A DNA stretch of 64,000 nt from Ostreococcus lucimarinus (taxonomy: Eukaryota), in the NCBI GenBank assembly GCA_000092065.1, contig CP000581.1; one strand, 5' to 3'. A program made the translations under genes and the position numbers. The notes under the pieces were generated by a model that worked only from the letters and a program-made list of their open reading frames with translations, searched no databases and was not told the DNA's origin. This document shows positions 8,434-57,072 of the stretch, in pieces. Numbering within the stretch: the first letter of the stretch is position 1; each line of letters starts with the position of its first letter.

Positions 8434-11400
8434 TTACAGCTCATCTTTCACGTCTTCTGTTTTATCGCCGACGCGCATGCGTTCTTCGACTCGTTCGGTG
8501 AACGCGCGAACCTCCGCGTCCAAACCTGGCCACTCTTGAACGATGCGTCGCGCGCCTTCAAGTTTTGGCTCCTTCGTGAGCGGGTTGTTACACAAATCGA
8601 TCGTCTTCGCCGCAGATTTGGTCTCATTCCCACACCACGATTCGCACCACAGCCAGGGCTGCGGTAACGAAAAGATTGGCACGTCGTGCTGCGCGTAGTT
8701 TGGCAAGTCTTGATCGAGGTTCGCCAACGAACCCGGATCTCGCGAAAGTTGGTCGTACATAACTCTCAATCTATCGCCAGCCGCCATAGCGCGAAAACGA
8801 TCGAGATCCACGACGTACAGCGCACTAATATGGTACGGCCTACCTCGTAAGTGATCTCGCCAGAAGCCCTGTTTCCAAAATCTAAAGCCTTCCATTTCTT
8901 TGTTGTTGTCGCACATCGGCGTGTACCCGTACGGCGCACCGTGAAGATCCATGGTCCAAAGTTCGCTCATATCCGCTCGAACAATTTGATCGGCATCGAC
9001 AAAAATAACTTTGTTGAGCTCGAGTGGGAACAGTACGTCGAGGAACAGAATCTTATACGCCCAGATGATTCTTTGCTTCTCCGTTTGCTTGTTCAGCCAC
9101 GTCGGCCACTTGTAGCTCACGAGCTCATACTCAAAGTCGTACTCCTTTGCCATGTACGGTAAGAAATCTTTAAAGGACGGCGAAAGCCAGTTTTTGATGA
9201 ACCAGAATTTCACCGGATTCTTCGTCGAGCGCTTGACGGATGCCATCATAATTTTCAAGAATCGCTCGTACAGATGACCGGAGGCAACGCTAAAGATGTG
9301 AATACGGTCTGCCTCCTTCGTCCTCTTGAATACACTCGACAACCATCCACTATTGTCTGAGGTTGAAACTTCGTCGAGTACGTCAAGATCTTCCTTACCT
9401 TTCCGTCTCGCAAGAGATACGTCAAGTTGCCGCCCTCTGAAAGAGTCCACTAATACGTCGACGGTGGATTCGTCGTGCGAAAGCGTCAAGTCTCGCGCCT
9501 CCGAGTCGAGAAGATCTTTCACCTGAAGAAATGCGAATATGTCCGACGATCTACCAGCTCGAAGTGACAACTTGTGCATTCCAGGTGAGGCTGGAAGCTG
9601 AAAATAACCCAAGTTCGACATCACGATTGTGCCTGGATTCACGGCCACGCTCTTATCCTCGAGCACGAACTGTGTCCCTCTCGCCGGTTGACCCGTGTTG
9701 TGATCACTTGCGTGGCCAGTGACTAGCAGAGACTCGAGCAAGTACTCTGCGTGCACAGTCTTCTCCTTGATGTCTTTGAGAATCAGGTTATCCAAATCAT
9801 ATGCCGCCCTGTGAGTCGTCACCATCCACGCTTCTGGGAAATCTACGTGCATCGTGAGCGTCTTGTGGGTCGGAACATTGGTGATGAATGCACGAGGTGA
9901 TTCCGTCATCGACGACGGTGGCGCAACATAGCGGTAGTACGACTTCAACGGTAAATCCTGCAAATTCGTCATGGGATTAAGGACGACTCGAATGGTCACC
10001 GCTTCTGGCAATCGGTCTCGAAGTAGCGCGAGCACCGGCGCGACGCGTTGCGCCTCCTTACTCAAAGGATCGAGAATGGCCTCAATCTGAACGATAGTTC
10101 CGGAGCCAGTGACAAAACTTGTTGCTTTCGCGTCGTTAATGATTTCCTCCAAACTTTCCACCGTTCGCTTCGTGGATGCGCCGGCTTGTTTCATCGCAAC
10201 AATTGCTGCGGCGTCTGAGATGATGGTCGACAACAAAGCCGGTTCCATCTCCTCGGCGTCTGAGAGGATTTCTTCTTTCACCACGTCGAATACCATTTTA
10301 GATGTTTTTGTCATCTCGATGGCGGCGAGAACGTCCAGGTCTTCGGCATCCATTTGACATTGTCTGGCCATCAGATCCAGGACCCTTCCATTCGCAATAA
10401 CGGCGCACTTCGATGTCAAGTCGTAATGAGCCAGTAGTCGAAGACTTTGCGTCGCGACGTCGGCAAAAATCGTCTCGTCGCTATACAGTCGCTTAAAATC
10501 GACCAAATTCAGCCCCATTCGCTCCGCCGCATCCTCGGGCTTCACATCTTCTGCCAAGAGTTGCTCAACGAAATTGGCAATCTTAGCCCGTCGCGTAGGC
10601 AGATGCAACGCGGCTTGAATCGCGCGCGAGCGCGCTCCCATCGTCGCAGCTGCCGATGGATGAACTACTGTAAATCGCGAAAGCGAACCAGATTCGGACA
10701 ACACGTGCTTTGCAGCCGCCAGGATCAAAAGTGCGCCCCTATCACTGTCAGCGTTGGCTACGACGACGATGGACATACCTTTCACTTCGTCTGCATCGCC
10801 GCCTTGAGCGTACTTGAGCGAAGCGATTGACGAACGGTCGATGGGTAATCGATACACCGGTGCGACATCATCCTCATCCAATATCCAAGGAACATACTTA
10901 GAAACCGCTCCTTCTTGCATGAACTTCGCCACATTTTCGAGCAGGGCGCCGGCAAGTTTTCCCGCAACAACGAGTCTTCGAACTTTCTCCATCTCCTGGC
11001 GCAAGTGGTGCGATACCATTTGCTCCAACGATGCGCGATACGCCATACCTTGCGATTCATCGACGTACACACCGTTCAATACGAACGACTGTGTCATCAA
11101 GCCTTTCGCCTTCACGGCGGCGCGGACTTCGTCGATGTACTTGTCGATGCTCGTTGACGAACGAGATGCGAACTCTTCGAGCAACGTCACCGCATCAAAT
11201 TCGAGATCATCGGCAAATTCTGACAGTGTTTTCTCGAACGCATCCATCGCACCTTCCCAAGACGGCGGAGAATATACCGCGGGCGCGAAGTACGACGGTG
11301 GTCTTTCTTCCGTACGACTTTGCGCTACGTAAGACATGAAATTGTGCTGTGCGACAGGCCCATATTCGCGCAATAAGTAATTTGCGGCACGTGCAACGCG

Positions 11401-13071
11401 ACGTCCGAAAACTAGGTCCGTTTGCTTCGCAAACGTCTGAGCGAGGACGGGATCAGGGTTATCTAACCCTGTGACGACGACTTGAGCCATTCGCACCGGT
11501 ACTTTGTGATCGTAGAAATGGGACATCATCCCAACCATATCCCACGTCGACATGTCTGACGGATCCAGGAAAACGGCCATATTGTAGAGATTGTACCTCA
11601 CTTTCGGAAATCCGCCTCGCGAAGGTTCGAGCAACGTTTTCAAATTCCTAGTCCACGAAGCGAACTTCGCGTCGGCCTCGATGTCGTTGTAAAACAGGAT
11701 TGCCGGGTTCGTCACGTCAATCTTGACCTCAGAGCTTCGCTGCTTTTTGGGCAAGCGAAGAAGCCTTGAAACGCTCGATTGCGGCAACCCAAGACGACGA
11801 AGCGCAGCGGCGTGCTGTACCTCCTTTGATATGGTCTCCGTCAAGGTGTAGATGTCGATGGTGTCGAGTTCTAAATTCTCGCCGTTGAGCGACATGATCA
11901 ACCCTCCGGGACGCATGTTTTTGCGATTTTTCGTCACTTCATTAACGATTGTCGAATTCAGTTTCATGCGAGACAATGAGTTCGCTAAAGAAGGGAAATT
12001 TTGCGAGAGCTCGACCAGGGCTCGGAGAGGATCGTCGGAGAGCGAGATGCGCTGCGTCGCCTGCAAGCCTAAATCCTTGATATCCCACAATTTCAGAGGC
12101 GCATCCGAGGTCAGCTCCGACTTTCCAACCATCGCGTCGCGAAATGCGCGTAGACCATCGACTTCGTTCGGATATCTCTTTGCTAATGTAGCGAAATTAA
12201 ATCCCGACACGCTCTCGTCTGCGAGCTCGTCGCCGAGCGGCGCCGACGCGTCGTCGTCCGCATCAGCCTCTTCGGCCTTGACCTTGCTATCATCAATCGC
12301 CTTGTACTCCATATTTTTCACCGCGAGCTCGACACCGAATCCGGCCAGGCGCAAGTTGGCGTCGTCAGACGCCCCGAACGCAGCGCACGAATCTCTTCTC
12401 GCGCACGCCGTCTCGAACAGTACCGGTCTTAAAACGTAGTTCACCAGACCGGACTCGCTCGCATCGACTAAAACGCGGTGCATCGAGTTAAAACACGCCG
12501 TCCCGGGCGCGGCGTACGCGAAAGCCGTCGGCAACGTCGCATTGAGCGCACCGCCGTACGTCGCGTCGCGTTCCGTCGCGCTCCCGCTCGCGCTCGCCGC
12601 GCCCGCGCGCACCGCCCCCTCCAGCGCCCCCGTGTCGTCATACACCGCCCCCCCCAACTCCACGCGACAGCATCCACCGCTCGCATCGCTCAGCGCCGCC
12701 GCCATCGTCCGAAAACTCGCCAGTCTCGGCGAGTACGCTCGCGCGCCGCGCGCCAATCCCAACGCCCGCGCGCGTCCATCGTCCCCGAGCGCCCGTCGTC
12801 CCGCCTCGTCCACGCGCGCCTCGCACGTCGCGTCATCGCTCGCGTCGCCATCGATCGGCGCGTCCAGATCGTCGACGAGCGTCCAGAACGCCGCGCCATC
12901 GACGTCCGCGACGCCGACCAGCGTTTCCAACGCGAACGACGTCGCGCGCCATCCCGCGCGCAGCGCGACGTCGATCGATTTCGCGCCCGCCGCGCCGCGC
13001 GCGAGCGCGCACGCGACGAGCAGCGACGCGATCGCGCGGCGCGCGCGCGCGCGCGGCGTCTCGACGCGCAT
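8434..13071 (-). CDS. UGGT: UDP-glucose:glycoprotein glucosyltransferase (ER folding sensor)
   Basis: 1545-aa single ORF with a signal-peptide-like N-terminus. C-terminal GT8/GT24 catalytic domain (..[75 protein letters not shown]..) and a terminal ..VKDEL ER-retention signal. Real ATG at 13071. Confidence 0.9.
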   Translation of the reverse strand: [1545 protein letters not shown]

Positions 13072-13163
13072 CGCCGCGCGGATGAGTGACGCGCCGGCGC
13101 GCGCGGCGTCATCTCTCGACGCGCGACGCGTCGCGCGGACGCGCGCGCGCGCGACGCGACGCG

Positions 13164-13733
13164 ATGGTGCTCGGCGTGTCCACGACGACGCTCGTGCTCG
13201 CGATCGGCGCCGGCGCGCTGGCGCTCGGGCCGAGAGACGTCCCGGTGGCGGCGAAATTCTTGGGAAGACTCACGGGACGCGCGGTGGCGCACGTCGGCGG
13301 CGTCGCGCGCGCGATCGAGCGCGCGACGAACGAGCGGGAGCTGCGAGGGATACGCGCGGAGGTGCGAGCGTCGATGAAGGACCTGCGAGGGGTGGCGCGG
13401 GAGATCGAGCGGGAGTTGACGCCGTCGGGACGGCGCGGCGAGGACGAGGGCGAGGGCGAACGCGAGGGCGGGACGAGCGCGACGGCGACGACGGCGACGT
13501 CGAGGGACGATTCGAGGACGTCGACGTCGGCGAGATACGAACGGGTGATTCCGGTGAGCGCGCGCGCGGTCGGGGCGACGCCGGCGAGCGGCGGGTTCGG
13601 CGTCGCCGGTTCCGAAGTGCTCGCGGCGAGTTTTAAAGAGCGCGAGGTCGCGCTCAAGGCGGCGCGGTTGATGGAGAGCGGCGCGATCGATGACTATTTA
13701 GCGAAGCGCGAGCGCGAGGGGGGCACCGAGTAG
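13164..13733 (+). CDS. TatB/Hcf106-like twin-arginine translocase subunit, no N-terminal presequence
   Basis: First real ATG at 13164; the track's 13086 is GTG. MVLGVSTTTLVLAIGAGALALGPRDVPVAAKFLGRLTGRAVAHV.. has the TatB pattern: TM helix, GP hinge, amphipathic helix (compare E. coli TatB [37 protein letters not shown]). The rest is an acidic/basic tail. Confidence 0.45.
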   Translation: MVLGVSTTTLVLAIGAGALALGPRDVPVAAKFLGRLTGRAVAHVGGVARAIERATNERELRGIRAEVRASMKDLRGVAREIERELTPSGRRGEDEGEGEREGGTSATATTATSRDDSRTSTSARYERVIPVSARAVGATPASGGFGVAGSEVLAASFKEREVALKAARLMESGAIDDYLAKREREGGTE

Positions 13734-13838: not shown

Positions 13839-14579
13839 CTAAAGCTTGTCGAGAATGTGCTCGGTGACTTGCTTGCGAGTGTCCTCGGGCGACGTCACGG
13901 TGTGCCCGATCGTCTTCGGAGACTCGAAAATCTCGTGGTCGTTACCGCCCGGGTACGTCTTGTCGCCGAAGAAGTGAATGACGTCGAAGTCGTTCTCCAC
14001 GAATTGCAAGCAGTACGTCTTATCCCATCCCTGCGGGAACACGTCGAACGAAATCTGTCCCCCGATGGAGTACGTCAGCCCGTAATCCGCGAATTCTTTG
14101 CGCAGAGTCTCCACCATCGCCTTGCGCACGCCCGCCTTTTCGTCAAAGCGCTCGAACTCGTCCCGCTCCTCCTGACTGCAATTTCTCCCGATCGGCGACA
14201 CGTTCAGCATCCCCGCCCTGAACTCGATGAACGTCCCCCGCTTCACCGGGACGTCCAAATCCGCCACGTAGTGCAGCACAAAGTTAATAAACCGCTTCAA
14301 CTTGTCCTCGCCCAGAAACGCCTTGAGCGACTGCTTCGCCAGGAGCGCGCCATCCTTGTACGCCACCAGCCCGTTCTCCGAGAACAAGTACGCGTACTCC
14401 CGCTCCACGCCCTCGCCGAGCTGTTCGGAGATCTTCACCAGATCCGACCCGCCCACGATCCCGACCGTCACCCTCGACCGCAGATCCTCCATGAAGCGCT
14501 TCATGACGTCGTCCGCCTCCTTTCGCGGCACCGTCAGCGTGCCGTCGACGTCGAACAGCGCGAGCACGCGCGGCGACAT
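13839..14579 (-). CDS. PMM: Phosphomannomutase (HAD superfamily)
   Basis: 246 aa from real ATG at 14579: [20 protein letters not shown].. (DVDGT HAD motif) ..[36 protein letters not shown]... Upstream of 14579 the long ORF is microsatellite-encoded R/A noise. Confidence 0.9.
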
Positions 14580-56525: not shown

Positions 56526-56585
56526 CGTAGATTTTGTGGTCTTGATGCTGCGCAATACAACGTCTCAGCGATTCCTCGCGCCGTC

Positions 56586-57072
56586 TACTCCTCCTTCTTA
56601 TCGCCCTCGATCGCCTTCGTCTCGCCTTCTTCGGTCATTTCCTCTGTAAGTTCATCCTTAAACTCCTATTCGCGTCGCAAACCAACCGTCACGATTCGTC
56701 AGTCGTCGCGTTCGCTCGCCCTCGTCCCGCGTCGCCTTCGTTTGAGATACTCTTTGCCCTCGCGCGTCCGTCTCGCGCGCTCGCTCGATCAACGCCTTCG
56801 CCGCGCACCTTGGCCGCCTCTTGAAAACTCTTCACCGTCTTCCCGAGCGACTTTCCGAGCTCGGGAAGCTTGCTCGGGCCGAACAGCACCGCGGCGACGC
56901 CACCGATGACGACGATTTCAGGAAGCCCGAGCCCGAACAATCCGTTGGAAATCACGCGCGCGCGTCGTCGTTCGAGCGCCGCGCGACGCGGCGCCAGCGC
57001 GGACGATCGCTGTGCGTACGTTTGACGCGCCGCGACGCGCGTCGCGCGCGCCGGGGCGTGCACGGTAAACAT
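56586..57072 (-). CDS. THA4: Plastid twin-arginine translocase subunit Tha4 (TatA), 2 exons
   Basis: Exon 1 ..GLFGLGLPEIVVIGGVAAVLFGPSKLPELGKSLGKTVKSFQEAAK ends at AAG|gtgcgc (intron 56667-56808, actgac 27 nt before acceptor aatag). Exon 2 (56586-56666) encodes EFKDELTEEMTEEGETKAIEGDKKEE*, giving the canonical ..FQEAAKEF.. and acidic tail. Start set at ATG 57072 (MFTVHAPARATRVAARQ.. transit peptide). An upstream in-frame ATG at 57195 is an alternative. Confidence 0.8.

Follow-up and report, generated by a model that had tools for sequence, protein, structure and literature searches.

A nuclear gene of Ostreococcus lucimarinus probably encodes a mitochondrial TatB that lacks a presequence

Introduction

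The closest described counterparts of the gene considered here are the nuclear-encoded mitochondrial TatB proteins (mTatB) of the Tat (twin-arginine translocation) system. Their Arabidopsis representative, the product of At5g43680 with 232 amino acids (aa), has been placed in mitochondria experimentally (PMC13456617), co-migrates with the TatC encoded by the mitochondrial DNA (mtDNA), and is needed for the insertion of the Rieske iron-sulfur (Fe-S) protein into complex III (PMC13456617, PMC5855863, PMC10231475). Besides plants, nuclear mTatB has been described in ochrophytes, oomycetes, a cryptophyte, and jakobids (Petru et al. 2018; Gray et al. 2020); Table S1 of Petru et al. 2018 contains no green algae, though the proteomes of Ostreococcus tauri and Micromonas were part of the initial search set, and we found no chlorophyte mTatB named in the open literature. 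Here we describe a TatB-like gene of Ostreococcus lucimarinus CCE9901, located in a 64,000-nucleotide stretch of nuclear chromosome DNA (contig CP000581.1; hereafter the window), which probably encodes the Mamiellales orthologue of mTatB, i.e., a member of the At5g43680 family. The gene, unannotated until now, adds a further algal group to the known mTatB family and does not represent a novel type of system.

Homology to bacterial TatB and streptophyte mitochondrial TatB

The gene is an intron-less open reading frame (ORF) on the plus strand (13164..13733), running from an ATG at 13164 through 189 codons to a TAG at 13731-13733. Its product, which opens with MVLGVSTTTLVLAIGAGALALGPRDVPVAAKFLGR, is identical to XP_001415436.1 (ABO93728.1; UniRef A4RQS4), an O. 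lucimarinus entry named "predicted protein" by NCBI. An earlier note on this DNA had placed the ORF at the same positions and quoted its N-terminal letters correctly; the translation comprises 189 aa and not the 190 aa given there. Copies of the 189-aa protein are labeled "TatA" by the JGI/IMG automatic pipeline.

A profile built from ten Mamiellales sequences, run with HMMER against 1.84 billion cluster representatives, recovered 1046 matches at E<=1e-3, which fall into a eukaryotic and a bacterial group. The eukaryotic proteins (170-320 aa) share the N-terminal domain, and most of the top scorers carry at their C-terminus the motif P-[VI]-S-A..G..P....G-[SA]-[DE]..[DE]A..E..VA. Included in this group are proteins of Chlorokybus, Diphasiastrum, Ginkgo, and Apostasia, of which the Apostasia entry is the only one with a TatB name in UniRef. 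When a land-plant member served as the query, 485 angiosperm relatives were retrieved; among the matches listed, many go by the name "sec-independent protein translocase protein TatB" and one by "mitochondrial TatB-like". The bacterial proteins begin MFDIGWSE...GPKDLP, and all 16 that were tested match the TIGR01410 tatB model (best E 6e-24). One bacterial protein (P0150), retrieved by the Mamiellales profile with an E-value of 7e-13, scores 73.6 bits on that model, above its cut-off of 56.5.

The bacterial and streptophyte sets for profile-to-profile alignment with hhalign were picked from these HMMER matches, so that the resulting E-values are not fully independent; with this limit, the Mamiellales profile matches the streptophyte mitochondrial TatB family over both domains, the C-terminal motif included (99.7%, E 4.6e-27, 177 columns), and bacterial TatB over residues 2-90 (99.1%, E 1.1e-18), and the land-plant mTatB and bacterial TatB profiles match each other (99.4%, E 4e-21, 82 columns). 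The matches to the core of the plastid Tha4 encoded in the same window (49%, E 1.8e-4) and to an alignment of plastid Hcf106 (30%, E 5.5e-4) span 34 columns each. With the single O. lucimarinus sequence, NCBIfam returns only TatB-type models, all below cut-off, which cover residues 3-135 and 17-69 (PRK04654, E 1.5e-5; TIGR01410 tatB, E 3e-4 and 21.3 bits vs a cut-off of 56.5). Precomputed matches to the Pfam TatA_B_E model (PF02416) exist for one Mamiellales homologue (P0074) and for many land-plant homologues. In a profile search of the PDB, TatA and TatB chains were among the top matches, aligned from residue 3-6; being weak (E 0.04-1) and set amid coiled-coil noise (OS-9, ApoE, CagA), they were taken as supporting evidence only.

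By these alignments, the N-terminal 90 residues are homologous to bacterial TatB, and the whole protein, with its eukaryote-specific C-terminal motif, is homologous to streptophyte mTatB. The profile match between land-plant mTatB and bacterial TatB sits uneasily with the statement in a 2020 preprint that the two have "entirely different sequences" (bioRxiv 10.1101/2020.04.06.026997). The proposal of the earlier note that this is a candidate nuclear-encoded, presequence-less mitochondrial TatB is supported by the hhalign match to the mTatB family, the shared C-terminal motif, and the lack of an upstream exon considered in the next section.

Translation start, absence of a presequence, and gene neighborhood

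The TatB-like gene is divergent from a gene for UGGT (UDP-glucose:glycoprotein glucosyltransferase; 8434..13071, minus strand), whose ATG lies at 13071, and the spacer between the two start codons measures 92 bp (13072..13163). An in-frame TGA (13083-13085, plus strand) stands 78 nt 5' of the ATG at 13164, with no in-frame ATG in the interval between them; hence, there is no unspliced N-terminal extension, and the stop, together with the mere 92 bp that separate the two divergent start codons, allows no exon coding for a presequence or a transit peptide. The same features bear out the presequence-less product of the earlier note and exclude the upstream transit-peptide exon that it had named as speaking against its own reading. 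An equivalent upstream in-frame stop, again without an intervening ATG, is found at four orthologous loci (L001, L003, L004, L005), which represent two further lineages of Mamiellales. All Mamiellales homologues start M-[VP]-[FL]-G-[VLM]-S, and the land-plant relatives and nameable streptophyte homologues start at the same aligned position, i.e., at the transmembrane (TM) helix.

An upstream ATG at 13082 (MSDAP...) was rejected as a start because it is out of frame in the window. In one metagenomic variant (P0070) this ATG is joined in frame; this is probably an assembly error, since the same variant is also frameshifted at its C-terminus, where it ends in the +1 frame. More generally, three near-identical metagenomic copies (P0070, P0076, P0085) have frameshifted N- or C-termini, most likely as a result of misassembly or indel errors within GC-rich repeats. 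Four further metagenomic homologues (P0079, P0119, P0124, P0126) have been called with N-terminal extensions of 25-52 aa from upstream in-frame ATGs (e.g., the Bathycoccus-like MMMTRSGVAAFADAPRSVDARCARGESTTTTT), calls that probably reflect the preference of prokaryotic gene callers for the longest ORF.

The other flank of the TatB-like gene is occupied by a phosphomannomutase gene (PMM; 13839..14579, minus strand). The order R3H-domain protein - UGGT(-) - TatB-like(+) - PMM(-) is kept both in a genome resembling that of O. tauri and in a Mamiellales lineage further removed (loci L001, L004). In other Mamiellales, the start codons of UGGT and the TatB-like gene are 77-107 bp apart, and given this short distance between divergent starts the two genes probably share a bidirectional promoter.

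Anatomy of the product and replacement of the transmembrane glutamate

The features of the product are given here with their plus-strand coordinates. It begins with a short hydrophobic TM helix (residues 2-21, VLGVSTTTLVLAIGAGALAL; 13167..13226), with a mean Kyte-Doolittle hydropathy (KD) of 1.7 over residues 1-22 and an AlphaFold2 (AF2) helix at 7-20, in register with bacterial TatB and land-plant mTatB. This is followed by a Gly22-Pro23 hinge (13227..13232), the same GP as in bacterial TatB; both residues are invariant in the Mamiellales alignment, and upon addition of the land plants G22 stays invariant and P23 nearly so. A basic amphipathic helical region comes next (13239..13418; helices 26-54 and 60-85), the counterpart of the extended helices that set TatB apart from TatA: residues 24-50 have a net charge of +4 and a hydrophobic moment of 0.41-0.51, and residues 57-85 are more strongly amphipathic (hydrophobic moment 0.57-0.68). 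Hydropathy, net charge, and hydrophobic moment thus agree with the succession of TM helix, GP hinge, and amphipathic helix which had been noticed earlier from the letters.

The remainder of the protein consists of a low-complexity linker (residues 86-127; 13419..13544), comprised of a Glu/Gly-rich run and then a Thr/Ser/Ala-rich one (TSATATTATS) with a predicted local confidence (pLDDT) below 50, and a C-terminal domain (residues 128-189; 13545..13730) bearing the motif V-I-P-V-S-A-R..G..P....G-S-[DE]-V-L-A-A..K-E-R-E-V-A..A. Streptophyte mitochondrial TatB has this motif as well, and bacterial TatB and Hcf106 lack it; because chlorophytes and streptophytes have it in common, the C-terminal addition should predate the split of the green lineage. 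In comparison with an O. tauri-like copy, the ratio of nonsynonymous to synonymous substitution rates (dN/dS) is 0.43 overall, 0.33 for each of residues 1-85 and 128-189, and 1.08 for the linker; the linker, whose length varies among strains and species, is evolving neutrally. AF2, run on an alignment of 22 sequences, gives helices at 7-20, 26-54, 60-85, and 149-186, with 86-148 disordered (mean pLDDT 56, predicted TM-score (pTM) 0.23); owing to this low confidence the model was used for secondary structure only and not for a fold search.

The Thr9 codon (13188..13190) aligns with Glu8 of bacterial TatB and with the Glu of land-plant mTatB (SYGEL). This position is Thr or Ser in 10/10 aligned Mamiellales sequences and Glu in bacterial TatB and land-plant mTatB. 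In Escherichia coli, the TM glutamate docks TatB onto the polar cluster of TatC. The same glutamate (E. coli Glu8) is a TatB signature residue in Petru et al. 2018; in the algal protein this signature is lacking, and the Gly-Pro hinge and an amphipathic helix longer than that of TatA are present, the alignment to bacterial TatB reaching residue 90. The Mamiellales protein is thus best classed, from its alignment, as an atypical TatB member; its assignment by homology does not depend on the glutamate, which counts as a signature residue. Several other eukaryotic matches are likewise without the TM Glu (P0119, P0141, P0144, P0168, P0181).

To our knowledge, no mitochondrial TatA is known in Mamiellales. 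It is conceivable, if rather doubtful, that the Mamiellales mTatB, having lost the TM glutamate, is a remodelled and possibly bifunctional TatA/B subunit, that the mitochondrial Tat machine is here pared down to two components, and that the TatC encoded by the mtDNA has changed to compensate. Equally tentatively, the profile similarity of both the algal and the land-plant mTatB to bacterial TatB (E 1e-18 and 4e-21) would contradict the statement of "entirely different sequences" and would support descent of mTatB from the TatB of the endosymbiont by gene transfer. The natural replacement of Glu by Thr/Ser lends itself to testing the docking of TatB on TatC.

The plastid Tat genes

The window also holds the gene of the plastid TatA, Tha4, on the minus strand. 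It is comprised of exon 1 (57072..56809), a GT..AG intron of 143 nt (56808..56666), and exon 2 (56665..56585; EFKDELTEEMTEEGETKAIEGDKKEE and then the stop codon), and its product matches Pfam TatA_B_E at 6e-17. An N-terminal extension of about 45 aa, rich in Ala, Arg, and Ser, precedes its TM helix. The earlier note had described a Tha4 with a transit peptide at 56586-57072; the extension agrees with this, the stop lies one base further (56585), and the strand had not been given.

A core sequence of Hcf106, the plastid TatB, confirmed by a match identical to the Arabidopsis sequence (L007), was scanned against metagenome contigs. This yielded Hcf106 orthologues that are intron-less, have N-terminal extensions of 45-80 aa rich in Ala, Arg, Ser, and Thr, match Pfam TatA_B_E, and lie on marine contigs with a G+C fraction (GC) of 0.49-0.60, which is typical of Bathycoccus and Ostreococcus. 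The closest named relatives of these Mamiellales-type proteins are land-plant entries named "TATB, chloroplastic". In several lineages, the Mamiellales-type Hcf106 genes are flanked by a patatin/DUF3336 gene and a DEP/Duc1 gene (loci L013, L018, L014-L017, L087-L096). No RefSeq protein of O. lucimarinus or O. tauri was present among the best 120 matches, and the annotated Hcf106 gene models in the genomes of these two species may differ or be missing. In each of two assemblies (ERZ10646592 and ERZ10646630), such an Hcf106 gene is accompanied by a contig of 450 kb that encodes exactly the window protein; this is a co-occurrence and not proof of one genome. A further TatA/B/E gene, ostta06g03190 on chromosome 6, was detected in the O. 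tauri proteome. The window protein differs from Hcf106 in having no N-terminal extension, and its similarity to the Hcf106 core (motif FGVGAPEALVIGVVALLVFGPKGLA...FQPTIRELQ) is limited to the 34-column match. The plastid Tat system is, on this sequence evidence, served by separate genes, viz., Tha4 in the window and an Hcf106 orthologue elsewhere.

Mitochondrial assignment, proposed mechanism, and alternative explanations

Given its likely orthology to mTatB, we propose that the algal protein would be made in the cytosol without a cleavable presequence and inserted into the mitochondrial inner membrane in the bacterial-type orientation. In Bcs1, the internal targeting signal is a TM helix followed by a basic amphipathic helix, and the TM helix and basic amphipathic helix of the algal protein could serve as a comparable internal signal. 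Once inserted, it would pair with the mtDNA-encoded TatC (mttB) to form a TatBC receptor, which would recognize the twin-arginine signal of the Rieske Fe-S protein and move its folded domain across the inner membrane during the assembly of complex III, as in Arabidopsis. Table 2 of PMC3873408 lists mttB/tatC as present in the mtDNA of both O. tauri and Micromonas.

Several points weigh against this assignment. Pfam, including TatA_B_E (PF02416), the check proposed by the earlier note, gives no match at E<=1 for the single 189-aa product or for a 215-aa product from a GTG start, and all NCBIfam scores are far under the curated cut-offs. Arabidopsis At5g43680 itself is absent from the 120 matches listed of the 485 obtained with the land-plant homologue, so the link to it rests on the names of its relatives and on the literature. 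The non-independence of the hhalign E-values mentioned above counts in the same direction, as does the Ala/Arg/Gly-rich composition that comes with a GC-rich genome, which can inflate scores; set against both, the aligned sequences keep register from the N-terminus onward and have their GP hinges matched, and significance is already reached by the library-wide HMMER E-values. The AF2 model is of low confidence, and the signature TM Glu of Petru et al. 2018 is replaced by Thr/Ser. Furthermore, the mitochondrial localization follows from the presumed orthology, the TatC interaction and the Rieske substrate are attributed to the algal protein by analogy, and the mttB evidence comes from the mtDNA of its relatives O. 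tauri and Micromonas.

The most basic alternative is that the ORF is spurious, a chance open frame in 60% GC DNA with a compositional resemblance to TatB. The same stretch does contain overlapping ORFs of 180-360 aa in other frames, and with several frames open in a stretch of this GC an open frame alone therefore says little; the lack of a Pfam match for the product also fits such a view. However, 92 homologues with 50-100% identity were found; identity across Mamiellales is 50-88% with conserved synteny, the indels in their alignment all keep the frame and fall within the central linker, and both domains have a dN/dS of 0.33. The protein lines up with TatB in register from residue 2 onward, the GP hinges coinciding, and homologues range from Chlorokybus to angiosperms. 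The TatB-like gene is a conserved, selected, intron-less gene, and we regard the chance-ORF explanation as refuted by this pattern of conservation, with a negligible residual probability.

Among the alternatives that accept a genuine TatB relative, it might be a plastid TatB (i.e., the Hcf106 orthologue) or a dual-targeted TatB, with targeting supplied by an internal signal or by an upstream exon that has escaped recognition. Its membership in the TatA/B family in a photosynthetic alga, whose plastid Tat system needs a TatB, the presence of Tha4 in the same window, and the fact that the Hcf106-bearing contigs are not attributable to O. lucimarinus by name would all accord with this. Yet the in-frame stop and the 92-bp gap leave no space for a transit-peptide exon, the match to Hcf106 (E 5.5e-4 over 34 columns) falls far short of that to mTatB (E 4.6e-27, 177 columns), a third TatA/B/E gene (ostta06g03190) exists in O. 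tauri, and separate Hcf106 orthologues with long extensions exist on Mamiellales-like contigs, co-occurring with the window protein in ERZ10646592 and ERZ10646630; we therefore consider a plastid function highly improbable. Somewhat less remote, though still unlikely, is a TatB descendant that no longer takes part in a canonical Tat receptor and acts as a TatC-independent membrane protein or as an assembly factor using only its C-terminal domain, the loss of Glu reflecting this change. The replacement of the TM Glu8 by Thr/Ser throughout Mamiellales, a eukaryote-specific C-terminal domain that is as constrained as the TatB-like one (dN/dS 0.33 each), and the failure of some TatC-only mitochondrial systems to complement bacterial Tat (PMC6251230) lend it some plausibility. 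Nevertheless, purifying selection still acts on the GP hinge and on all 90 residues of the TatB-like region, the residue substituted at position 9 is still a polar hydroxyl one, mttB is retained in the otherwise compact mtDNAs of Mamiellales (PMC3873408), and the land-plant orthologue acts with TatC in Rieske insertion. An mTatB orthologue, even if atypical, thus appears to be the probable identity of the O. lucimarinus protein.

Implications

By this assignment, a model picoeukaryote's "predicted protein" would acquire a function, and it would be shown that the arrangement of a nuclear TatB with a mitochondrial TatC, studied only in Arabidopsis, is also present in early-branching chlorophytes with very compact genomes. 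O. tauri is transformable, and it could serve as a simple unicellular system for the study of mitochondrial Tat.

Comparison with known systems

With the plastid proteins Hcf106 and Tha4, the O. lucimarinus protein shares the superfamily architecture of TM helix, GP hinge, and amphipathic helix. These differ from it in having transit-peptide-like extensions and strong Pfam TatA_B_E matches and in lacking the C-terminal motif, and the similarity to them is limited to about 34 residues. The N-terminal TM helix, Gly-Pro hinge, and extended amphipathic helices are likewise those of bacterial TatB (TIGR01410; E. coli structures 2MI2 and 9DZZ), from which the algal protein departs in that it is without Glu8, carries a eukaryote-specific C-terminal domain, scores under the TIGR01410 cut-off, and, being nuclear-encoded, must be imported. 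The nuclear TatB proteins of ochrophytes, oomycetes, cryptophytes, and jakobids similarly occur beside an mtDNA-encoded TatC (Petru et al. 2018; Gray et al. 2020), a likeness drawn here by description.

The closest resemblance is to the plant mTatB (Arabidopsis At5g43680; Carrie et al. 2016; Schafer et al. 2020). The algal protein is shorter (189 vs about 232 aa) owing to a shorter linker, is about 25% identical, and has Thr/Ser ('STTTL') in place of the TM Glu of 'SYGEL'. Both are products of nuclear genes that begin at the TM helix without a presequence; both have the GP hinge, a long amphipathic region, a variable linker, and the C-terminal motif PVSA..G..P....GSD..EA..E.EVA; and the setting with an mtDNA-encoded TatC is probably common to both, mttB being listed for O. 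tauri and Micromonas.

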